A stretch of 64,000 nt of DNA, from NCBI RefSeq assembly GCF_044324875.1, contig NZ_CP172185.1. One strand, 5' to 3'. The DNA comes from Escherichia coli (GTDB taxonomy: Bacteria > Pseudomonadota > Gammaproteobacteria > Enterobacterales > Enterobacteriaceae). The position numbers and the translations under genes are program-made. The notes beneath the pieces are model-generated. The model did no database searches, was not told the origin of the DNA, and was given only the letters and a program-made list of their open reading frames with translations. Below are positions 1,972 through 14,475 of this stretch, one piece after another. Numbering within the stretch: position 1 is the stretch's first letter; every line of letters begins with the position of its first letter.

Positions 1972-3659
1972 TGAAAAACGTTTTATGTGAAACCGCCTCC
2001 GGGCGGTTTTGTCGTTTATGGAGCGTGAGGAATGGGTAAAGGCAGCAGTAAGGGGCATACCCCGCGCGAAGCGAAGGACAACCTGAAGTCCACGCAGTTG
2101 CTGAGTGTGATCGATGTCATCAGCGAAGGGCCGATACAAGGACCGGTGGATGGATTAAAAAGCGTGCTGCTGAACGGTACGCCGGTGCTGGACAGTGAGG
2201 GGAATACCAATATATCCGGCGTCACGGTGGTATTCCGGGCCGGTGAGCAGGAGCAGACGCCGCCGGAGGGATTTGAATCCTCCGGCTCCGAGACGGTGCT
2301 GGGTACGGAAGTGAAGTACGACACGCCGATTACCCGGACCATCACGTCGGCAAACATCGACCGTCTGCGCCTGACCTTCGGTGTGCAGGCACTGGTGGAA
2401 ACCACCTCAAAGGGGGACCGGAATCCGTCGGAAGTCCGCCTGCTGGTTCAGATACAGCGTAACGGTCGCTGGTTAACGGAAAAAGACATCACCATTAAGG
2501 GCAAAACCACCTCGCAGTATCTGGCCTCGGTGGTGGTGGGTAACCTGCCGCCGCGCCCGTTCAGTATCCGGATGCGCAGGATGACGCCGGACAGCACCAC
2601 AGACCAGCTGCAGAACAAAACGCTCTGGTCGTCATACACCGAAATCATCGATGTGAAACAGTGCTACCCGAACACGGCACTGGTCGGTGTGCAGGTGGAT
2701 TCGGAGCAGTTCGGCAGCCAGCAGGTGAGCCGTAATTATCATCTTCGCGGGCGCATTCTGCAGGTGCCGTCGAACTATAACCCGCAGACGCGGCAATACA
2801 GCGGTATCTGGGACGGAACGTTTAAACCGGCATACAGCAACAACCCGGCCTGGTGTCTGTGGGATATGCTGACCCATCCGCGCTACGGCATGGGGAAACG
2901 TGTTGGCGCAGCGGATGTGGATAAATGGGCGCTGTATGTCATCGGCCAGTACTGCGACCAGTCAGTGCCGGACGGCTCTGGTGGCACGGAGCCGCGCATC
3001 ACCTGTAATGCCTGGCTGACCACACAGCGTAAGGCGTGGGATGTGCTCAGTGATTTCTGCTCGGCGATGCGCTGTATGCCGGTATGGAACGGGCAGACGC
3101 TGACGTTCGTGCAGGACCGACCGTCGGATAAGGTGTGGACCTATAACCGCAGTAATGTGGTGATGCCGGATGATGGCGCGCCGTTCCGCTACAGCTTCAG
3201 CGCCCTGAAGGACCGCCATAATGCCGTTGAGGTGAACTGGAGTGACCCGGATAACGGCCAGGAGACGGCGACAGAGCTTGTGGAGGACACGCAGGCCATT
3301 GCCCGTTACGGTCGTAACGTCACGAAGATGGATGCCTTTGGCTGTACCAGCCGGGGGCAGGCACACCGCGCCGGGCTGTGGCTGATTAAAACAGAACTGC
3401 TGGAGACGCAGACCGTGGATTTCAGCGTGGGTGCTGAAGGGCTTCGCCATGTACCGGTGCAAAATGGCATCTGAATCGATCGCAGTTTGGCATTCGAATC
3501 GATCATGATTTGGCATCCATCTCCGATCACAGTTTGGCATCACAATCGATCACGATTTGGCATGCTTCCGATCATTGATTGGCATCCTGCCAGTCACTCC
3601 GGGAATTAACTCTTTTCACCACAGTCTCCATTGCCGTGTTTAAACCAGTGGAGACGTCA

Positions 3660-5225
3660 ATGTCCAGAAAGAGAAAATCCAGGAGCACTATGGAAACCTG
3701 TTTTAAGATCCTTCAGCTCAAGTTCGACAAGAAGCTGACTAACCGTTGTATCGGACTGACGTTACACATCAGCGCCTCAACCGTTTTTGAGGTTCTTGCC
3801 CGCTTCAAAGCCTCTTCTCTGTCATGGCCATTACCTGCTGATATATCCCATGACACGCTGGAGAAACTCATTTTTCCGCCCAAAGACACCTTTGCATCAG
3901 AGCTTGTAATGCCTGACATGTTGTACTTCGATACGGAAATGAGAAAACCAGGTGTGACGCGGCAACTGTTGTGGATGGAATACAAGGCACAGGCGGGTAA
4001 CAAAGCGATGGGATACTCGCACTTCTGCCGTTGCTACCGGGAGTGGAAAAAAACGCGACGTCTCTCCATGCGCCAGGAGCATCGTGCCGGCGAAAAGCTT
4101 TTTATCGACTTCTGTGGTCCTACGGTTCCTGTTATTAATCCGGACACCGGTGAGATACGCCGCGTGGCAATCTTCGTGGCCGTAATGGGGGCGTCCAACT
4201 ATACCTACGTTGAAGCGTGCGAAGGTCAGGACATGATGTCATGGTTAAATGCCCACAGCCGTTGCCTGACCTTCCTGGGCGGCGTACCGAAGCTGCTCAT
4301 CCCCGATAACCTCAGAAGCGCAGTGAAAAAGGCCGATCGATATGAGCCTGTCATCAACGACAGTTATCAGGCACTGGCTGAGCACTATGGCACGGTTATC
4401 ATCCCGGCCCGACCACGCAAACCTAAAGATAAACCAAAAGCAGAAAACGGCGTCCTCATCGTTGAACGATGGCTTCTTGCCCGCATCCGTAATGAAACCT
4501 TCCACACGCTCAGGGCGCTGAATGCGCGCCTTAGGGAGTTACTGACAGACATGAATAACCGGCCAATGAAGGGGTACGGCAATCAAACCCGTGCAGAACG
4601 CTTCCGCATACTGGATGCGCCAGCACTCTCTCCGCTGCCTCTGGCACCTTATGAATACACGGAATACAAAGCTGTGAAGGTTGGCCCTGACTACCACGTT
4701 GAATATGCCCGTCACTGGTACTCCGTTCCACACGAACTGGTCGGTCAGCGTCTGTCACTGAAGGCGGGGCAGTCGGTGGTACAGCTCTGGCACAAGGGGC
4801 AGTGTGTGGCGCAACATCCGCGCAGCACACATGAATATAAACACACAACCAATCCGCTTCACATGCCAGAGCGCCACCGGCAGCACGGGACATGGACACC
4901 GGAACGCCTGATCGAGCAGGGAAAACGTACGGGCCCGTCCACAGGCCGGGTGGTTGAATCCATGCTGAAGGCAAAACCCCATCCGGAACTGGCTTATCGT
5001 GCAGTTCTGGGGCTGCTGGCACTTCAGAAAAAATACGGCCCGGAACGGCTGGAAAAGGCCTGTTACGTTGCCCTGCACTATAACGCCCCTGACAGACGCT
5101 TTATCGACAATCTGCTGCGTCACCATCGGGAGAACCTGGAGCTTCCATTATCCCGCCAGGGCGAACAACATCCGGCATATGCTTCAGAGCATGAAAACCT
5201 GCGTGGTCCGGGCTACTACCACTGA
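3660..5225 (+). CDS. istA: IS21-family transposase IstA
   Basis: About 520 aa with N-terminal HTH region (...LSWPLPADISHDTLEKL...) and an IstA-like central/C-terminal region; start chosen at ATG 3660, upstream alternative start possible. Confidence 0.75.
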   Translation: MSRKRKSRSTMETCFKILQLKFDKKLTNRCIGLTLHISASTVFEVLARFKASSLSWPLPADISHDTLEKLIFPPKDTFASELVMPDMLYFDTEMRKPGVTRQLLWMEYKAQAGNKAMGYSHFCRCYREWKKTRRLSMRQEHRAGEKLFIDFCGPTVPVINPDTGEIRRVAIFVAVMGASNYTYVEACEGQDMMSWLNAHSRCLTFLGGVPKLLIPDNLRSAVKKADRYEPVINDSYQALAEHYGTVIIPARPRKPKDKPKAENGVLIVERWLLARIRNETFHTLRALNARLRELLTDMNNRPMKGYGNQTRAERFRILDAPALSPLPLAPYEYTEYKAVKVGPDYHVEYARHWYSVPHELVGQRLSLKAGQSVVQLWHKGQCVAQHPRSTHEYKHTTNPLHMPERHRQHGTWTPERLIEQGKRTGPSTGRVVESMLKAKPHPELAYRAVLGLLALQKKYGPERLEKACYVALHYNAPDRRFIDNLLRHHRENLELPLSRQGEQHPAYASEHENLRGPGYYH

Positions 5226-5241
5226 CAGAAGGAACAACAGT

Positions 5242-5997
5242 ATGAGTGATAACCTGTTAAACAAACTGACCCAACTGAAACTCCCGGCGATGGCCGGGAG
5301 CCTGATACGGCAGCGGGAAACGCCTCAGACCTACGACGAACTGTCGTTCGAGGAAAGGCTGACGCTGCTGGTTGATGACGAGCTTCTGAGCAGGGAAAAC
5401 AGCCGTGTGGCACGGTTGAGAAAAAATGCCGGCCTGAAATACCAGGCAACACCGGAAGGGCTGCGCTATCCGGCCTCAAGAGGTCTGCGGGCTGAACAGA
5501 TGAGAGAACTGCTGAACGGCCACTACATAACCCACAGGAAAAACCTGCTGATAACCGGTCCGACAGGATGTGGCAAGAGCTGGATAGCCAATGCGCTGGG
5601 CGAACAGGCATGTCGACAGAAACACAGCGTCCGGTACTGTAGAACCGGGCGATTACTGGAACAACTGGCTCAGGGACGTGTTGATGGCAGCTGGCTGAAA
5701 TATCTGAAACAGTTGCAAAAAATACAGGTTCTAATCCTGGACGATCTGGGGCTGGAACAGTTAAGTAACGCCCAGTGTAATGACCTTCTGGAGCTCATAG
5801 AGGATCGTTACGGACAAAGCAGCACGATAGTGGTAAGCCAGTTCCCGGTAGATAAATGGCATGGTCTGATGGAGAACCCAACAACAGCAGATGCCATCCT
5901 GGACAGACTGGTACATAACTCACACCGAGTGGTCCTTCAGGGAGAGTCACTGAGGAAAAATCCCCCGGTAGTGGAAAGCAGCGAAAAAACGCGTTAA
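5242..5997 (+). CDS. istB: IS21-family helper ATPase IstB
   Basis: 251 aa; Walker A GPTGCGKSWIANALG; Walker B LILDDLG; typical IstB size and position after istA. Confidence 0.85.
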   Translation: MSDNLLNKLTQLKLPAMAGSLIRQRETPQTYDELSFEERLTLLVDDELLSRENSRVARLRKNAGLKYQATPEGLRYPASRGLRAEQMRELLNGHYITHRKNLLITGPTGCGKSWIANALGEQACRQKHSVRYCRTGRLLEQLAQGRVDGSWLKYLKQLQKIQVLILDDLGLEQLSNAQCNDLLELIEDRYGQSSTIVVSQFPVDKWHGLMENPTTADAILDRLVHNSHRVVLQGESLRKNPPVVESSEKTR

Positions 5998-8218
5998 AAA
6001 GCGGTAGAAAAAGTTAAGTTCCCGGTTGATCGAATGGATGCGAATCGCTGATCGGACTTCGATGCCAATCCGTGATCGAATAGAGCGGAATACGCATACC
6101 GGGCGATGTCATTGAAATCTGTGATGATGACTATGCCGGTATCAGCACCGGTGGTCGTGTGCTGGCGGTGAACAGCCAGACCCGGACGCTGACGCTCGAC
6201 CGTGAAATCACGCTGCCATCCTCCGGTACCACGCTGATAAGCCTGGTTGACGGAAGTGGCAATCCGGTCAGCGTGGAGGTTCAGTCCGTCACCGACGGCG
6301 TGAAGGTAAAAGTGAGCCGGGTTCCTGACGGCGTTGCCGAGTACAGCGTGTGGGGGCTGAAGCTGCCGACGCTGCGCCAGCGCCTGTTCCGCTGCGTGAG
6401 TATCCGTGAGAACGACGACGGCACGTATGCCATCACTGCCGTGCAGCATGTACCGGAAAAAGAGGGCATCGTGGATAACGGGGCACACTTTGACGGTGAC
6501 CAGAGCGGCACGGTGAATGGTGTCACGCCGCCAGCAGTGCAGCACCTGACTGTCGAAGTCACCGCAGACAGCGGGGAGTATCAGGTACTGGCCCGCTGGG
6601 ACACGCCGAAGGTGGTGAAAGGCGTGAGTTTCATGCTTCGCCTGACCGTGGCAGCGGATGACGGCAGTGAGCGGCTGGTCAGCACGGCCCGGACGACGGA
6701 AACCACATACCGCTTCAGGCAGCTGGCGCCGGGGAACTACAGGCTGACAGTCCGGGCAGTAAATGCCCGGGGGCAGCAGGGAGACCCGGCGTCGGTATCG
6801 TTCCGGATTGCCGCACCGGCAGCGCCGTCGCGGATTGAGCTGACGCCGGGCTATTTTCAGATAACCGCCACGCCGCATCTTGCCGTTTATGATCCGACGG
6901 TGCAGTTTGAGTTCTGGTTCTCGGAAAAGCGGATTACCGATATCAGGCAGGTTGAAACCACAGCCCGTTATCTTGGTACCGGAAGTCAGTGGCTTGTCTC
7001 CGGCCAGAATATTAAACCTGGCCATGATTATTACTTTTATATCCGCAGTGTTAACACTGTCGGTAAATCGGCATTCGTGGAGGCAGTCGGTCGGGCGAGT
7101 AATGATCCTGCCGGTTACCTTAATTTTTTCAGGGGGGCGATAAATAAAACGCATCTGGGACGGGAGATCAATGAACGCATTGATGCCTCTGCACGGCGCA
7201 CTGAAGTTGAGCAACTGGAGAATGCGATTAACCGCGAAATGACGCAGCTGGAGAATGCGATTAACCGCGAAATGACGCAGCTGGAGAAAGATGTGAGGCA
7301 GCGTGCGGAGCGTGATATCGCAGAGGTGACGAAAAAAATCACGGCGTCTGAAAACAGCATAACGGAACTGGTGGCGAAAAAGAGCGGTGAACAGTCGCTG
7401 GCCATTGCGAAAGTCGACAGGAAAGTTGACAGCGTGAGCAGTGAAATCCGGCAGACAGTAAGCAGGAGCACGGAGGAGAACAGCCGACAGATAGCGCAGG
7501 TCAGGCAGTATGTTGATGATAAAAGTGCGCAAATAAGTACTGTTGTGGCGAAAAAGAGCGGTGAACAGTCAATGGCCATTGCGGAAGTTGACAGAAAAGT
7601 TGACAGGATGGGCAGCGAAATCCGGCAGACAGTAAGCAGGAGCACGGAGGAGAACAGCCGACAGATAGCGCAGATCAGACAGTATGTTGATGATAAGGGA
7701 AGTCAGATCAAACAGAGCACGGATAAAAAACTGGGATCCTGGAATGCCAGCATTGAGCAGATACAGAAAGTTCAGGAGGACACGCGCCGGAACCTGAACA
7801 GCATGTGGGCTGTGAAGCTGCAGCAGACACGGGATGGACGTCTCTATATTGCAGGTATTGGTGCCGGAATCGAAAATACGTCTGACGGAATTCAGAGTCA
7901 GATCCTGATGCAGGCAGATCGTATTGCGATGATTAACCCGGAAAATGGCAATACAACACCTTTGTTTGTGGCTCAGGGTGATCAGCTGTTCATGAATGAT
8001 GTTTTCATGAAAAAACTGACCGTGGATTTTGCCAGAGTGACGGGAGATATCCGGTCAGATAATTTTCATTCCGGTAGTCCGGGGTGGCGTTTATCAAGAA
8101 ACGGCAGCCTTGAAATTAACTCAGGAAGGCCCGGCGCAGGCCGCCTGTTTTTCAATGGCGAGCGAATCGACGTATATGACGATAACAATGTGTTAAGAGT
8201 ACGACTGGGGAGACTGTA

Positions 8219-8479
8219 ATGTTCGGAGTCCGGGTATGGCGCAAAGGGCGCCTTGTGACACATGAAATAAACCCAACAGGGGTGCTGGATGTGATCACTG
8301 AAGGGACGGGGCAGCGTTCTTATACTCCTTTGCAGGGCTGGCGTCTGGAAGTCTGTTCACCGGCCATTCTGATTAACGGTCAGGGAAGTCATACCAGTGC
8401 CAGTGTATCCGGCTGGACAGTGCACTATGCCAACACAAGCTGGCTAAGACCCGTGCTGGTCATGATAAGGGGGATCTGA
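8219..8479 (+). CDS. Hypothetical phage protein, translationally coupled to J (TAATG overlap)
   Basis: 86-aa ORF starting on the J stop codon; no motif I can recognise. Confidence 0.4.
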   Translation: MFGVRVWRKGRLVTHEINPTGVLDVITEGTGQRSYTPLQGWRLEVCSPAILINGQGSHTSASVSGWTVHYANTSWLRPVLVMIRGI

Positions 8480-9141
8480 TGTTTGCACTTAAATTAACTG
8501 ATGAGCGGGGGAGAGAATGGATATCACCTGTTGCGCCGCCACTGAACCTTGTGCGCCGTTTTCATTTCACACTGAGTGCGCGTGATGCGGTGATGCAGTT
8601 TATCGACACCGGGGTGCCGACGAATTATCGTTGCGTGATTTTTATTAAACAGATAAGCGGTAATCAGTCCTTCCATGGTGAAATGGTTCAGCTTAACGGT
8701 ACCTGGCAGTATGACATTTTCAGCGCTGGTACAGGGCAGGAGCCGGGCATGGAACAGGACAGCACATATGTTGTTTATGTTTTTGCCAACATGGTGAATG
8801 TATGGCCGCAATGGGGAATACAGTTGTGCGACAGTCATGGCAGGGTGGTCTGGAACACGGAAATGCTGCCACTGGAAGTAAAAATGACGCGAATATGGGA
8901 AAAGGATGTACCGATCAGTGTGGGACATGATGTGGCCGTAATGCCGGGGTGTACCCAGTGGACGACAGTTCAGGAAGGGGAGAGTTATTACTGGTATACC
9001 GCCAGTTTTAATGCCAGAAACTCACAGTTATGGCGTCAGTCAACTTTTGCTGAAGATAACGTAGCGGCGCCCAATGATAATTCAGGTGTTGTTAATAACC
9101 TCTGTTATTACATAAATGCAGAAATTTATGATGCGTACTGA
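8479..9141 (+). CDS. Hypothetical phage protein (tail-associated or moron), coupled by TGATG overlap
   Basis: 220-aa ORF, Trp/Tyr-rich, no recognisable catalytic motif; sits between J and the side tail fiber. Confidence 0.45.
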   Translation: MFALKLTDERGREWISPVAPPLNLVRRFHFTLSARDAVMQFIDTGVPTNYRCVIFIKQISGNQSFHGEMVQLNGTWQYDIFSAGTGQEPGMEQDSTYVVYVFANMVNVWPQWGIQLCDSHGRVVWNTEMLPLEVKMTRIWEKDVPISVGHDVAVMPGCTQWTTVQEGESYYWYTASFNARNSQLWRQSTFAEDNVAAPNDNSGVVNNLCYYINAEIYDAY

Positions 9142-9483: not shown

Positions 9484-10812
9484 ATGGCGGCTGTAAAAAT
9501 TTCAGGCGTGCTCAGGGACGGAACCGGAAAACCGGTACCGGGATGCATTATTGAGCTGAAAGCGAAGAGAACCAGCGAGACAGTCATCGCCACGACAGTG
9601 GCTTATGGCATGCCGGAAGAGACGGGGAGTTACAGTATGGATGTGGAGCCAGGAATATACAGGGTGACACTCAATACAGAAGGTTACCGTCCTTCGTATG
9701 TGGGAGATATCGTGGTCAGGGAGGATTCTTCACCGGGAACACTGAATAAATTTCTGATGGAGATGGAAGATGCTCCTTATTATCCGAAGGCGTTGTCAGA
9801 GCTGGAGGCTGTGGTGCAGTCCATACTGCACAGAGCAGAGTCCGCGGCATCTGAGGCGGAGGAAGCCCGGAAGCGAGCAGCATCTGCCCGGGGACCACGA
9901 GGAGAGAAAGGGGATACCGGCGCTCGTGGTGAAAGAGGCATTACCGGGCCACAGGGGCCAAAAGGTGAAACAGGAGCACGTGGCCCGGCAGGACCACAGG
10001 GACCAAAAGGTGAAACAGGTGAACGCGGTCCGGCAGGTCCACAGGGACCAAAGGGCGATACAGGTGAACGCGGCCCGGCAGGTCCACAGGGACCAAAAGG
10101 TGAAACAGGTGCACGTGGTCCGGAAGGTCCACAGGGAGCAAAAGGTGAAACAGGTGAACGCGGCCCGGCAGGTCCACAGGGAGCAAAGGGCGAAACAGGT
10201 GCACGTGGTCCGGAAGGCCCTCAGGGTCTGAAGGGAGAAAAGGGTGAGCGAGGAGAAAAAGGCCCTAAGGGGGATAAAGGAGATCCGGGAGGTCCACAGG
10301 GACCAAAAGGTGAAACAGGTGAACGTGGCCCGGCAGGTCCACAGGGACCAAAAGGTGAAACAGGTGAACGTGGCCCGGCAGGTCCACAGGGACCAAAGGG
10401 CGATACAGGTGAACGCGGTCCGGCAGGTCCACAGGGGCCAAGAGGGTATACAGGTGAACGCGGGCCGACAGGTCTACAGGGGCCAAGAGGGTATACAGGT
10501 GAACGCGGGCCGGCAGGTCCACAGGGGCCAAGAGGAGAAGCGGGGCGGCCAGCGAGCGTCGGAAGTGTTTATTCCGTGGGGTCTTATGTTCTGGGGATCA
10601 TAGAACGAAATCATGAGATAACAAATACCCGTCAAATACCCGGGTATCGTATCAGACAGGCCGTTATTGTGTCGTCGTCATCGGATAAACTTACAGATAT
10701 CCGCTTTTTATTTGGCAATCCTATGCTTGGTACATGGATGTTATGCACAACTAACATGGCGGTGAATAATATCAGTGGGACGATTTGGGGCCTGTTTCAG
10801 AGAATACTGTGA
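9484..10812 (+). CDS. Prophage side tail fiber protein with collagen-like Gly-X-Y repeat region
   Basis: N-terminus [29 protein letters not shown]... resembles the Stf N-terminal domain of E. coli prophages; about 220 aa of GxY triplets ([19 protein letters not shown]...). Confidence 0.8.
9886..10548 (+). repeat. Tandem, roughly 45-bp coding repeats (collagen-like Gly-X-Y) inside the tail fiber gene
   Basis: Repeated [15 protein letters not shown] units at nucleotide level; the ORFs in other frames and on the opposite strand over this stretch are repeat artefacts. Confidence 0.8.
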
Positions 10813-11002
10813 CAGGGGGAGAAATGAATGAAGGTCGATAAAATCACGTCACCAGTGTGGGCTGACAGGGGTCATACGACCATAAACTGTATAGTGAAGT
10901 TTTCAGACGCGGAAACAGAATGTGTATTTACAGCAAGTGCGGATGATCCGTAACCGGCTCATTTAAACCGTCTGGTCTGTTTCCTCCGGCTCTACAAAAA
11001 TA

Positions 11003-11680
11003 ATGTCCATCATTTTTAATGGACACTATCGTATGAAACACCGGACCTGGATCACTGAAGCTTTACGTCTTCACTTTGAAGAACATTTACCCCGGGTTGT
11101 GGCCGGGCGTCGCCTGGGTGTACCAAAATCAACAGTTTGTAGTATGTTCGTGCGCTTTCGGAGAGCTGGCCTTTCGTGGCCTTTGCCCGCAGGCATGTCG
11201 GAGCAGGAACTTGATGCCTGCCTTTACGGACAATTTTCCACGGTACCAGTCGTACGTCCTGAAAGCACCGTTATATCCGAAGCCCCCGTGGTAAAAAAAC
11301 GTCCCCGGCGGCCCAACTTCCCTTATGAGTTTAAAATCGCCTTAGTGGAGCAGTCACTGCAGCCCGGAGCCTGTGTGGCGCAGATCGCCCGGGAAAACGG
11401 AATCAACGATAACCTGCTCTTCAACTGGCGCCATCAATACCGGAAAGGTGGCCTGCTGCCTTCCGGAAAAAATATGCCGGCACTGCTTCCCGTGACGTTA
11501 ACGCCGGAGCCGGATAATAAAATCCCGGCCCCCGCACAGGAACCAGAGCAGATAAATACACCGTCCGACAGTCTGTGTTGTGAGCTGGTTCTGCCGGCCG
11601 GAACTCTCAGGCTTAAAGGTAAACTGACGCCGGCGTTATTACAGACACTTATCCGCGAAATAAAAGGGAGCAGCCACTGA
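11003..11680 (+). CDS. tnpA: IS66-family accessory protein (orfA/TnpA) with N-terminal HTH extension
   Basis: C-terminal part ...PNFPYEFKIALVEQSLQPGACVAQIARENGINDNLLFNWRHQYRKG is IS66 orfA-like; N-terminal part carries an LSWPLPA HTH-like motif. Start codon uncertain. Confidence 0.7.
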   Translation: MSIIFNGHYRMKHRTWITEALRLHFEEHLPRVVAGRRLGVPKSTVCSMFVRFRRAGLSWPLPAGMSEQELDACLYGQFSTVPVVRPESTVISEAPVVKKRPRRPNFPYEFKIALVEQSLQPGACVAQIARENGINDNLLFNWRHQYRKGGLLPSGKNMPALLPVTLTPEPDNKIPAPAQEPEQINTPSDSLCCELVLPAGTLRLKGKLTPALLQTLIREIKGSSH

Positions 11681-12027
11681 TGATATCTCTCCCTGCAGGT
11701 TCGCGTATCTGGCTGGTTGCAGGTATCACCGATATGCGAAATGGCTTTAACGGCCTGGCATCAAAAGTTCAGAACGTCCTGAAGGATGACCCGTTCTCCG
11801 GACACCTGTTCATCTTCCGCGGACGCCGGGGTGACCAGATAAAAGTGTTGTGGGCTGACAGTGACGGACTGTGCCTCTTCACCAAACGCCTGGAGCGGGG
11901 CCGCTTCGTCTGGCCAGTCACCCGTGACGGCAAGGTGCACCTTACTCCGGCTCAGTTATCCATGCTTCTTGAAGGTATCAACTGGAAGCACCCGAAACGA
12001 ACGGAACGCGCTGGAATCCGCATATAA
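11680..12027 (+). CDS. tnpB: IS66-family TnpB (Orf2)
   Basis: 115 aa MISLPAGSRIWLVAGITDMRNGFNGLASKVQNVL...; overlapping start with orfA stop. Confidence 0.85.
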   Translation: MISLPAGSRIWLVAGITDMRNGFNGLASKVQNVLKDDPFSGHLFIFRGRRGDQIKVLWADSDGLCLFTKRLERGRFVWPVTRDGKVHLTPAQLSMLLEGINWKHPKRTERAGIRI

Positions 12028-12046
12028 CCCGTTGTAAAGTGAGGAT

Positions 12047-13618
12047 ATGGACACCTCACTTGCTCATGAGAACGCCCGCCTGCGGGCACTGTTGCAGACG
12101 CAACAGGACACCATCCGCCAGATGGCTGAATACAACCGCCTGCTCTCACAGCGGGTGGCGGCTTATGCTTCCGAAATCAACCGGCTGAAGGCGCTGGTTG
12201 CGAAACTGCAACGTATGCAGTTCGGTAAAAGCTCAGAAAAACTTCGTGCAAAAACCGAACGGCAGATACAGGAAGCACAGGAGCGAATCAGCGCACTTCA
12301 GGAAGAAATGGCGGAAACGCTGGGTGAGCAATATGACCCGGTACTGCCATCCGCCCTGCGCCAGTCTTCAGCCCGTAAACCGTTACCGGCCTCACTTCCC
12401 CGTGAAACCCGGGTTATCCGGCCGGAAGAGGAATGCTGTCCTGCCTGTGGTGGTGAACTCAGTTCTCTGGGATGTGATGTGTCAGAGCAACTGGAGCTTA
12501 TCAGCAGCGCCTTTAAGGTTATCGAAACACAACGTCCGAAACAGGCCTGTTGCCGGTGCGACCATATCGTGCAGGCACCAGTACCTTCAAAACCCATTGC
12601 ACGCAGTTATGCCGGAGCGGGGCTTCTGGCCCATGTTGTCACCGGGAAATATGCAGACCATCTGCCGTTATACCGCCAGTCAGAAATATACCGTCGTCAG
12701 GGAGTGGAGCTGAGCCGTGCCACACTGGGGCGCTGGACAGGTGCTGTTGCTGAACTGCTGGAGCCGCTGTATGACGTCCTGCGCCAGTATGTGCTGATGC
12801 CCGGTAAAGTCCATGCTGATGATATCCCCGTCCCGGTCCAGGAGCCGGGCAGCGGTAAAACCCGGACAGCCCGGCTGTGGGTCTACGTCCGTGATGACCG
12901 TAACGCCGGTTCACAGATGCCCCCGGCGGTCTGGTTCGCGTACAGTCCGGACCGGAAAGGTATCCATCCACAAAATCACCTGGCCGGTTACAGCGGTGTG
13001 CTTCAGGCCGATGCTTACGGTGGTTACCGGGCGTTATACGAATCCGGCAGAATAACGGAAGCCGCGTGTATGGCTCATGCCCGGAGAAAAATCCACGATG
13101 TGCATGCAAGAGCGCCCACCTACATCACCACGGAAGCCCTGCAGCGTATCGGTGAACTGTATGCCATCGAGGCAGAGGTCCGGGGCTGTTCAGCAGAACA
13201 GCGTCTGGCGGCAAGAAAAGCCAGAGCCGCGCCACTGATGCAGTCACTGTATGACTGGATACAGCAACAGATGAAAACACTGTCGCGTCACTCAGATACG
13301 GCAAAAGCGTTCGCATACCTGCTGAAACAGTGGGATGCACTGAACGTGTACTGCAGTAATGGCTGGGTGGAAATCGACAACAACATCGCAGAGAACGCCT
13401 TACGGGGAGTGGCCGTAGGCCGGAAAAACTGGATGTTCGCGGGTTCCGACAGCGGTGGTGAACATGCGGCGGTGTTGTACTCGCTGATCGGCACATGCCG
13501 TCTGAACAATGTGGAGCCAGAAAAGTGGCTGCGTTACGTCATTGAACATATCCAGGACTGGCCGGCAAACCGGGTACGCGATCTGTTGCCCTGGAAAGTT
13601 GATCTGAGCTCTCAGTAA
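12047..13618 (+). CDS. tnpC: IS66-family transposase TnpC
   Basis: 523 aa; N-terminal coiled coil, Cys cluster CCPACGGEL...CCRCDH, DDE-type catalytic region. Confidence 0.85.
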
Positions 13619-14475
13619 ATATCAATACGGTTCTGACGAGTCGCTTACGATGATCCTGAGTCTTACGGTCGTGAAATATTTGAAGCCTGCATAAGAGGTG
13701 ATGCAGGGCCGGTAGGTGAGTACCGGGCAAATGATGATATGGCTGTGGAAGAAGCACGCAGGATGAAAAACGCGGAGATAAATGCCTGGCGTGATGCGAT
13801 GGAGGCGTCAGGGTATGTTTTTGAGCACAGAGGACGGAAATGGGATTATGGAAAGGAAACCATGACACGTCTTGGAATGTCGGCATCAGCGGCCAGAGGC
13901 GGTGTGTTGCCGGAAGGATTTTTCTGGACGGACGCAGAGAATAATGATGTACCGATGACGGCAGATGAACTGATATCCCTGAGTGATGCTGCTGGTAAAG
14001 CGATGTTCAGGAAAGGCCTTGAAATACATATAAGGCAAAGGGAGATGAAAAAGGCAATAGCAGAACTGAGTGACAGTGAAACCATTCTGGCGTACAGGGT
14101 TGGATGGTGAAACTGATAAAAAAACCCCTCTGAAAATTCTGTCAGAGGGGGGCAAGGATCTATATTTATTATGCGGTAATGCTTTCACTCCGGTAATTAA
14201 TTTCAGTGATTAACTGCTTTCGATCAATAAAGGAATTGCAAAAAGGTGATCTTGTTCACGACATTGTGGATGATAATATGCCTGATGTCTGAATCCGGAA
14301 ACAGTGATCTGGCGGGTTTCATGTGAAGTTGACGGATAAAAAATCCGCACGACCAGACAGACGTGCGGTTTACGAAATTCGTAACAAGAGGCTTTTCTAG
14401 GGATCACGTGGTGCGTGCCACGTGAAATTTTTGTAGCGCAAAATGTGTAATGTGTAAATACAAGGAAGGAAAAAG

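Follow-up and report, generated by a model that had tools for sequence, protein, structure and literature searches.

Tandem in-frame repeats in the helical shaft of a lambda-type J protein and their copy number among Escherichia coli genomes

The J gene of a lambda-like prophage in Escherichia coli contig NZ_CP172185.1 carries two tandem duplications, and our analysis of a 64,000-nucleotide stretch of this contig (here, the window) very probably explains them as in-frame module duplications that lengthen the alpha-helical shaft of J and whose copy number shifts by recombination or slippage. The explanation builds on the observed position of the repeats, the helical character and module structure of the segment that holds them, and their polymorphism. 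The shaft itself is predicted to be a parallel trimeric rod of ~27 nm, and fibre length or receptor reach may plausibly depend on copy number. The features of the shaft are as follows.

7113..7802, + strand: alpha-helical shaft (coiled-coil segment), J residues 813-1042, delimited by lambda-matching flanks, periodicity and AlphaFold2
7215..7280, + strand: 33-bp tandem duplication of 11 codons per copy, exact copies at 7215-7247 and 7248-7280
7371..7718, + strand: two 174-bp (58-codon) units, A (7371-7544) and B (7545-7718)
7284..7805, + strand: six older 29-residue modules, J residues 870-1043, from offset-29 self-similarity

Tandem repeats and module structure of the shaft

The initial annotation had placed both tandem duplications in frame within J, and re-reading of the sequence together with Tandem Repeats Finder confirmed this at the same coordinates; for 7211-7288 the program reported a period of 33, 2.4 copies and 97% matches. 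A chance origin of the 33-bp repeat is excluded, since the probability of an exact adjacent 33-mer is ~4^-33 per position. A short direct repeat, CA(A/G)CTGGAGAA, is found at both edges of this duplication. Units A and B are 93% identical over their first 152 nt, and over the full 174 nt they have 27 differences (84.5% identity) and 11 amino acid changes in 58 residues, which are concentrated in the last seven codons; the longer duplication thus stands as first described, but the "few substitutions" attributed to it were somewhat too low an estimate. The codon differences between the two units comprise 11 non-synonymous and 8 synonymous changes, so that purifying selection has been mild at most. 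Of the two repeats, the 174-bp one arose earlier, when a block of two modules (58 residues) was duplicated, and the 33-bp one is very recent.

Both repeats lie inside the shaft, which follows the second Ig/FNIII domain of J, leads into the beta-prism and is ~4.7-fold longer than that of lambda J (~230 residues versus 49-53). Residues 813-838 and 842-941 of lambda J align on either side of ~185 extra residues, which bears out the earlier statement that lambda J lacks this segment. Its coiled-coil-like character, also proposed earlier, is upheld by a hydrophobic period of 3.63-3.64 (power 151 versus a shuffle maximum of 104) and by a single-chain AlphaFold2 monomer model in which one continuous helix runs across both repeats from J residue 826 to 1004 (pLDDT 70-93, pTM 0.27). 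Charged residues make up 33% of the shaft and Ala/Ser/Thr/Val 32%, a composition similar to that of the lambda shaft. In a Pfam search of J the shaft matched no family, the coil alone had no significant sequence match in the PDB, and Foldseek with the monomer model returned only weak matches to phage SU10 and lambda central fibre chains (TM-scores 0.10-0.16).

The older modules were seen as an offset-29 self-similarity of 0.50 against a shuffle maximum of 0.35, with the recent copies collapsed beforehand. One 58-residue unit equals two such modules, each of roughly eight helical turns, and the A/B duplication has retained the coil periodicity despite 16% nucleotide divergence. In a crude Fourier register test with artificial inserts of 50-66 residues, 58 was in phase (power 144, with minima of 94-108 at 53, 57, 60 and 64) and was not uniquely best among the in-phase insert lengths; inserts of 7-15 residues at the 11-residue site were not separated by length. 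Selection for helical register was considered on this basis and is not claimed, because duplication between periodic units yields in-phase lengths automatically.

We propose that the shaft would have grown from ~50 residues, as in lambda, to ~230 as a 29-residue coiled-coil module was duplicated in tandem, repeatedly and in frame, and that the duplication of the 11-residue stretch may have formed between the short direct repeats at its edges. Unequal recombination or replication slippage between units would keep altering the copy number, and E. coli prophage alleles of different shaft length would be the consequence. As a trimeric rod, the shaft would hold the distal tip at a set distance from the tail, with an estimated gain in reach of ~8.6 nm for each 58-residue unit and ~1.6 nm for each 11-residue unit. 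The tip would consist of a T1/HK022-type end, to which separately encoded receptor-binding proteins would probably be attached.

The interrupted J gene and its distal end

In the window, J is not an uninterrupted frame. It is split at 3457/6103 by an insertion sequence upstream of the repeats, a feature absent from the initial annotation, and the gene and its surroundings are arranged as follows.

2032..3457, + strand: 5' segment of J (hub domains), cut by the insertion sequence; ORF 2032..3474
3458..6096, + strand: IS21-family (ISSso4-like) insertion sequence of 2,639 bp, with istA at ~3660-5225 and istB at ~5242-5997
6103..8219, + strand: 3' segment of J including the stop codon, 99.2% identical to TUM1886 gpJ
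6504..7130, + strand: two Ig/FNIII domains of J (Ig_J, Ig_J_second), from Pfam
7803..8216, + strand: distal 138 residues of J, with the beta-prism start (MWAVK...) and a short T1/HK022-type end (...LRVRLGRL), PF09327
8255..9141, + strand: two coupled small ORFs after J, of 74-75 aa (8255-8479) and 220 aa (8479-9141), candidate tip or receptor-binding proteins

The 5' segment, up to 3457, shares 97.6% identity with the gpJ region of TUM1886, and the joined parts give 1180 aa with no stop codon. The element has the characteristics of the IS21 family, namely an istA transposase and an istB helper ATPase (ORFs 3579-5225 and 4999-5997), TG...CA ends and a short target duplication (TACCGG, 6 bp, at 3452-3457 and 6097-6102), and matches annotated istA/istB copies of the ISSso4 family at 100% identity. 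The junction between J and the element had no match in 5,426 complete E. coli genomes. As the element splits J, the allele is non-functional here and the copy number of its repeats is without present consequence in this genome; the biological consequence of the repeats for this strain is nil.

The domain order of J is lambda-type (hub domains, two Ig/FNIII domains, shaft, Phage_Tail_Tip beta-prism), with Pfam E-values of 2e-43 for Ig_J (ORF residues 116-220) and 2.5e-40 for Ig_J_second (ORF residues 222-324). The gene order L-K-I-J was also found, the ORFs at 43-1971 corresponding to minor tail protein L, a C40 peptidase and a tail assembly protein in the TUM1886 annotation. A second insertion sequence hits the side-fibre module, which encodes a side fibre with a lambda-Stf-type N-terminal domain (PF08400). 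The collagen-like side-fibre gene at 9484-10812 differs from its TUM1886 orthologue by one 45-nt Gly-X-Y block.

The distal part of J matches Pfam Phage_Tail_Tip (PF09327, E = 1e-34), and its PDB sequence matches are lambda residues 842-941 and the C-terminal ends of T1 gp33 (9l9p), 9ze4, 23gd and 7z4b. In homologues, the number of residues after the MWAVK-type motif is constant at 137-143. A lambda-type C-terminal Ig-like receptor-binding domain was not found, with no lambda alignment beyond approximately residue 941. The repeats therefore do lie just before a distal domain, as had been noted, but this domain is of the short T1/HK022 type and not a lambda-like receptor-binding domain. From the sequence of this short end, it appears that receptor binding is probably carried out by separately encoded proteins.

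The two small ORFs are present after this J at every locus examined. The 220-aa ORF has weak homology to HK022 gp26 (E = 5e-8) and to mEp390 gp21; searches returned no Pfam family for it, only PHROG 425, no PDB sequence match, and two database clusters. An AlphaFold2 model from the two-sequence alignment was unusable (pLDDT 42). A homologue of this ORF in an Stx2a phage is unannotated and contains a stop codon.

Copy number among Escherichia coli genomes

This shaft type was present in 22 complete-genome records among the 5,426 complete E. coli genomes surveyed. The 33-bp unit is single in 18 of the 22 records and doubled in four, and the 174-bp unit is present as two copies in 20 and as three in the remaining two, so that copy number varies among homologues and is not fixed. 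The three-copy arrangement is A-A-B (AR_0085 and ECCNB12-2), with a third copy that exactly matches unit A. Complete genomes have gpJ lengths of 3510, 3543 and 3717 nt. No link between copy number and C-terminus type was found among the compared alleles.

Beyond this survey, shaft-length classes of 49, 77, 150, 161, 186, 219, 230, 248 and 277 residues were seen among the retrieved E. coli J proteins, and the AR_0085 allele has a shaft of 288 residues by calculation. Related lineages have their own shaft duplications of 29 and 7 residues, and in distant homologues the coil arrays repeat every 28, 29 and 32-33 residues. None of the isolated phages in the phage collection has this shaft type, the nearest being 44.5% identical, and a search of a large protein database with the coil alone as query returned just 7 fragments. 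In open-access text, we found no paper describing repeat-number variation in the J shaft.

It is scarcely credible that the repeats were made by misassembly of the window. Short-read assemblies do fragment in J because of the repeats, and many database fragments begin or stop inside the 174-bp repeat. However, the same arrangement of two 33-bp and two 174-bp copies recurs at two loci of TUM1886 and in F1022, both of them independent complete genomes, for which reason the repeats are not an assembly artefact here, and other arrangements occur in further complete genomes. Alleles with one 58-residue unit (P0007, P0016-18) occur solely on short draft contigs, as do the two exact 87-nt duplications of P0001, and both could be assembly collapses or artefacts; apparent single-unit alleles should be treated with corresponding caution.

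A second alternative, possible though on balance unlikely, is that the duplications are neutral products of slippage, tolerated in a permissive rod without an adaptive role and seen here in a decaying gene disrupted by an insertion sequence. Consistent with neutrality, J has been inactivated by one insertion sequence and the side-fibre module struck by a second, the shaft type is rare, copy number is unlinked to the type of C-terminus, and selection on units A and B has been mild. A very recent origin, to which the exactness of the 33-bp copies and of the extra A unit points, also fits. On the other hand, the J ORF is intact and of full length in every complete genome examined, the A/B duplication is still coil-periodic after its divergence, and variation in shaft length is recurrent in many lineages.

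The preferred reading, lengthening of the shaft by module duplication, invites a further, adaptive proposal which we consider rather doubtful: that the copy number of the 58-residue module (or of the 11- or 29-residue ones) acts as a fast-evolving fibre ruler, with steps of ~1.6-8.6 nm selected for the thickness of O-antigen or capsule or for the stroke of a conformational change after receptor binding. Were this the case, the natural two- and three-unit alleles, and the one-unit alleles if real, would form a length series for the transmission of the receptor signal along the shaft, which would probe a lambda-type tail that has a long shaft without the fold-switch motif of the F7 type. Natural variants in unit number offer a genetic handle on how shaft length relates to adsorption through surface polysaccharide or to the triggering of ejection.

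Comparison with known systems

Recent structures show the central-fibre shaft to be more than a passive spacer, as both the lambda shaft and the F7 pyocin coil refold. In lambda gpJ the alpha-helical shaft comprises residues 809-861 (PDB 8IYK, 8XCI); receptor binding makes it flip and refold in part, with residues 841-861 turning to beta-strand once LamB is bound (PMC11101478). The J described here resembles lambda gpJ in having its shaft in the same place, between FNIII-2 and the beta-prism of the central straight fibre, with homologous flanks; the shaft is highly charged in both, and the upstream Ig/FNIII region has ~88-92% nucleotide identity. It differs in its 29-residue modules and recent tandem copies, inserted as ~185 residues between lambda positions 838 and 842, and in ending after 138 residues, whereas lambda has a long fibre and an Ig-like LamB-binding domain.

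At its distal end, J is closer to HK022, N15, mEp390, HK639 and T1 gp33, whose proteins are of 1149-1183 aa (1180 aa here), with shafts of 190-230 aa and a stretch of 137-142 aa beyond the MW/YxxK motif. The C-terminal motif ...GW.L...G..E.N...LRV..G is shared with HK022/T1-type J proteins, and in HK022, HK639, mEp390 and N15 two coupled small ORFs likewise follow J, with an stf-like fibre gene next. The J proteins of HK022, HK639 and mEp390 align end to end with the C-terminal 369 aa (27-28% identity, 99-100% coverage). Since the N-terminal two-thirds are lambda-like, the J described here is a mosaic. Unlike the present shaft, which is charged, has a period of 3.64 and is without motif enrichment, HK022-type shafts are Ala/Ser/Thr-rich, with a heptad-like period of 3.52 and the motif SxSxxMxxLxS. 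What the window contains is a charged, lambda-type shaft that has reached roughly the length known from HK022-type fibres and occurs naturally with different unit numbers.

A third system, the F7 pyocin, was compared by description. A 163-residue coil of its central fibre protein converts to a beta-prism and drives the opening of the tail, the same fold switch is predicted for the HK639 and mEp390 phage proteins, and two small proteins encoded directly downstream have been proposed as a receptor-binding tip (PMC12874032, preprint). Shared with J are a long helical segment that directly precedes a beta-prism seed, a C-terminal region of ~139 residues, and two small downstream ORFs; the shaft here is of 230 aa and the tail of 138 aa.

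These likenesses raise the possibility of a corresponding switch in J, in which a metastable trimeric coil would become a beta-prism on receptor contact and open the tail tip, the extra units adding stored energy or prism length. The end-to-end alignment with the J proteins of the two phages for which the switch is predicted, and with that of HK022, the shared layout of J and two small ORFs, and the conversion of the distal lambda shaft to a beta-strand on LamB binding are in its favour. Nevertheless, the motif SxSxxMxxLxS, counted in either orientation, is not enriched here (2 matches versus 1.4-1.5 expected, P = 0.41-0.44), although it is in the controls HK022 (10 versus 2.5), mEp390 (7 versus 2.0) and HK639 (6 versus 1.9), with P ≤ 0.017 for these three, and in distant homologues (P < 0.001). 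In motif-bearing coils, charged residues account for 18-21% and Ala/Ser/Thr/Val for 37-51%, values that differ from those of the present shaft, and their hydrophobic period is 3.52. With both the motif and the composition tests negative and the positive controls behaving as they should, a switch of the F7 type was rejected for this shaft, for which we consider it improbable.

The side fibres are a further point of comparison. The central fibre protein of the F7 pyocin has an Asp-rich gap in its coiled coil, to which three side-fibre trimers bind, and each 58-residue unit of J has conserved acidic motifs (YVDDK, VDRKVD). By analogy, each unit might offer an acidic patch that binds one set of side fibres, so that copy number would govern the number of sets attached. 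This is very improbable, as the side fibre encoded here carries PF08400, a domain which in Ur-lambda attaches to the gpV/gpM collar and not to the J shaft (PMC12617516). The side fibres of this prophage are thus probably borne on the collar, in contrast to those of F7 on the coil.

Lengthening of the shaft by module duplication has a parallel within the same prophage, where the collagen-like side fibre also shows in-frame gain or loss of periodic structural units, in a collagen triple helix rather than the alpha-helical coiled coil of J. Evolution by module duplication and change in copy number is nothing unusual for a phage fibre.

Interruption of the J gene

The gene for J, the central tail-fibre (tip attachment) protein of a lambda-like prophage, is not a single ORF in the window. 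In an alignment against the intact gpJ of E. coli strain TUM1886 (3543 nt, WP_264831589), homology ends at 3457 and restarts at 6097 with six bases in common, and the intervening segment is an insertion sequence that codes for IstA- and IstB-like proteins; other E. coli genomes carry copies at 100% identity, annotated there as ISSso4 of the IS21 family. Joining 2032-3457 to 6103-8219 restores an uninterrupted J of 1180 aa, whose residue numbers are used here. Since the rejoined gene reads through, the insertion is recent; its junction with J was found in 0 of 5,426 complete E. coli genomes. A second element lies within the DUF4376 gene, which comes after the side tail fibre gene; the host-recognition module of the prophage has thus been struck twice.

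3458-6096: IS21-family (ISSso4-like) element, 2,639 bp, begins TG and ends CA, splits J
3452-3457 and 6097-6102: target duplication TACCGG flanking the IS21-family element
10950-13648: IS66-family element, ends GTAA...TTAC, in the DUF4376 gene
11003-11680, 11680-12027 and 12047-13618: tnpA, tnpB and tnpC of the IS66-family element
10942-10949 and 13649-13656: 8-bp target duplication GATGATCC flanking the IS66-family element

At ~43000-47000, the chromosomal fliE/fliF region adjoins an integrase gene. The window is E. coli chromosomal DNA, as shown by 98.8-99.6% identity between this region and E. coli genomes; in the best match, MLI105, the span exceeds the query by ~2.2 kb and has an annotated ISEcp1-family transposase.

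Tandem repeats and the helical shaft

Two tandem repeats lie in ORF 6159-8219, the downstream part of J, and both share its frame, as the initial annotation had proposed. The 33-bp pair (7215-7247 and 7248-7280) consists of identical 33-mers that encode the same peptide twice; Tandem Repeats Finder reported this period with 2.4 copies and 97% matches, and the 174-bp period with 1.9 copies and a score of 575. At the 174-bp spacing, a repeat finder returned 152 nt at 93% identity.

7371-7544: unit A, 174 bp, J shaft
7545-7718: unit B, 174 bp, J shaft

Both repeats far exceed chance expectation. The 58-residue duplication is evident, and its description as differing by a few substitutions was slightly generous: across the full 174 nt, units A and B differ at 27 positions, giving 8 synonymous and 11 non-synonymous codon differences clustered in the last seven codons. 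A short direct repeat, CA(A/G)CTGGAGAA, flanks the 33-bp duplication; its copies are already 33 bp apart in alleles with a single 33-bp unit, which fits an origin by slippage.

Pfam placed Ig_J and Ig_J_second at residues 116-324 and Phage_Tail_Tip at residues 532-657 of ORF 6159-8219, and no family matched residues 325-531. The segment had been described as absent from lambda J, and a PDB sequence search bore this out, with ~185 residues lacking a lambda counterpart between the matches to lambda gpJ 813-838 and 842-941. In lambda, residues 809-861 form an alpha-helical shaft, a three-helix bundle beneath the second Ig/FNIII domain (FNIII-2), which flips and turns partly to beta-strand upon LamB binding (PMC11101478). 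The repeats are therefore placed as an expansion within the shaft, the helical rod between FNIII-2 and the beta-prism. Its suspected coiled-coil character was upheld by a hydrophobic period of 3.63 residues (power 151 vs a shuffle maximum of 104). AlphaFold2, run as a monomer on a 19-sequence alignment (pTM 0.27), predicted a single unbroken helix at J 826-1004 (pLDDT 70-93), with strands beginning at ~residue 1026; the model supports helicity, not trimeric geometry. In all, the repeats are real and were correctly located, and the structural reading of the initial annotation was largely right.

With recent repeat copies collapsed, the shaft is most similar to itself when shifted by 29 residues (0.50; shuffled sequences averaged -0.13 and reached at most 0.35). 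J 870-1043 fits six 29-residue rows with Ile/Val conserved at fixed columns, and the 58-residue unit comprises two such modules. With 3.63 residues to a turn, lengths of 29, 58 and 11 residues correspond to ~8, ~16 and ~3 turns. In a rough Fourier analysis of artificial inserts of varied length, 58 fell in an in-phase class, not uniquely best, and the 11-residue site gave no discrimination. Register preservation is read as a side effect of recombination between units that are themselves periodic, rather than as demonstrated selection, and variation in shaft length may itself be neutral.

On the best-supported reading, module number sets the length of a helical rod. An alpha-helix rises ~0.148-0.15 nm per residue, from which the predicted helix of ~179 residues is calculated to be ~27 nm long; each 58-residue unit would add ~8.6 nm and each 11-residue unit ~1.6 nm. 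Module number could tune how far the fibre reaches through surface polysaccharide, or the stroke of a post-binding change. In the window's own genome its role is moot, as J is split by the insertion sequence.

Copy number among genomes and proteins

The suggestion that repeat number might vary among homologues was borne out. The shaft type was present in 22 records among the 5,426 complete genomes and in no isolated phage of the collection searched. According to the match spans and the sequences extracted, 18 of the 22 have one 33-bp unit and four have two; 20 have two 174-bp units and two have three (AR_0085 and ECCNB12-2, gpJ 3717 nt in both), the third unit being an exact copy of unit A. 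The window's allele, with two copies of each unit, recurs among these records only in F1022 and in two prophages of TUM1886. The latter (loci L001 and L005) are both chromosomal and agree in the sequence of the J shaft and in the genes downstream, and are thus substrates for inter-prophage recombination.

Database proteins related to J, from short draft contigs, supply further alleles: P0005 has the order A-(B/A hybrid)-B, P0007 and P0016-18 have one unit each, and P0001 has two 87-nt duplications, both exact, within a single contig. Hundreds of J fragments in the databases, on contigs of 0.5-1.7 kb, start or end within the 174-bp repeat (e.g. P0013, P0271, P0272); short-read assemblies break at this repeat or may collapse it, so the one-unit alleles may be assembly artefacts, and the P0001 pair looks artefactual. 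Genuine one-unit shafts occur in relatives at 45-50% identity, among which the P0118 lineage shows two duplications of its own, a diverged one of 29 residues and another of 7 residues.

In the retrieved proteins, the GYLxFF-to-MWAVK distance falls into discrete classes of 49 (lambda), 77, 150, 161, 186, 219, 230 (window), 248 and 277 residues, and is 288 by calculation for the AR_0085 allele. Distant homologues of 1,100-4,233 aa all have 137-143 residues past the MWAVK-type motif, with coil arrays of periods 28, 29 and 32-33 residues. These length classes and varied periods indicate that tandem module duplication is the normal evolution of the segment.

Distal end and comparison with known systems

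The last 60-80 residues of J (...LRVRLGRL) match those at the C termini of T1 gp33 (9l9p), 9ze4, 23gd and 7z4b, and gave no match to the lambda receptor-binding domain in a PDB sequence search. The 369-residue C-terminal region aligns end to end, at 27-28% identity, with J of HK022, HK106, mEp390, HK639, T1-like and Pseudomonas phages. In P0010, P0014 and P0016-18 the window's shaft type is joined to a receptor-binding end like lambda's, and it thus behaves as a mosaic module. Two small ORFs always accompany the short-ended J.

8255-8479: ORF of 74-75 aa directly after J, no Pfam family
8479-9141: ORF of 220 aa, translationally coupled to the preceding ORF, no Pfam family

The layout matches HK022 gp25/gp26, N15 gp22/gp23 and mEp390 gp20/gp21, and the 220-aa product is weakly homologous to HK022 gp26 and mEp390 gp21. 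J-like proteins of this type have been proposed to carry separately encoded receptor-binding proteins (PMC8594841), such as PyoF11/F12 (PMC12874032), and the two ORFs may encode candidate tip or receptor-binding proteins. In the phages whose J aligns with this C-terminal region, as in the window, J and two coupled small-protein genes are followed by an stf-like fibre gene. The window's collagen-like side tail fibre gene (9484-10812; PF08400 N-terminal domain and Gly-X-Y repeats) has 1329 nt vs 1374 nt in the TUM1886 orthologue, and this 45-nt shortening adds another repeat-number polymorphism to the fibre cluster.

In the F7 pyocin central fibre, a 163-residue coil refolds to a beta-prism, and the same is predicted for HK639 and mEp390, with the strand motif SxSxxMxxLxS (2026 preprint, PMC12874032). 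The motif is enriched in HK022 (10 matches vs 2.5 expected), mEp390 (7 vs 2.0), HK639 (6 vs 1.9) and distant homologues (P < 0.001), and not in the window shaft (2 vs 1.4-1.5, P ~0.4). Although F7-type systems and the window J are alike in overall layout, membership of this fold-switching class is not supported. Motif-bearing coils are 18-21% charged and 37-51% Ala/Ser/Thr/Val with a period of 3.52, whereas in the window shaft 33% of residues are charged and 32% are Ala/Ser/Thr/Val, its period is 3.64, and its composition is similar to that of the lambda shaft (41% charged). The repeats are an ordinary example of fibre coiled-coil evolution, and the shaft alleles form a natural length series of some value.
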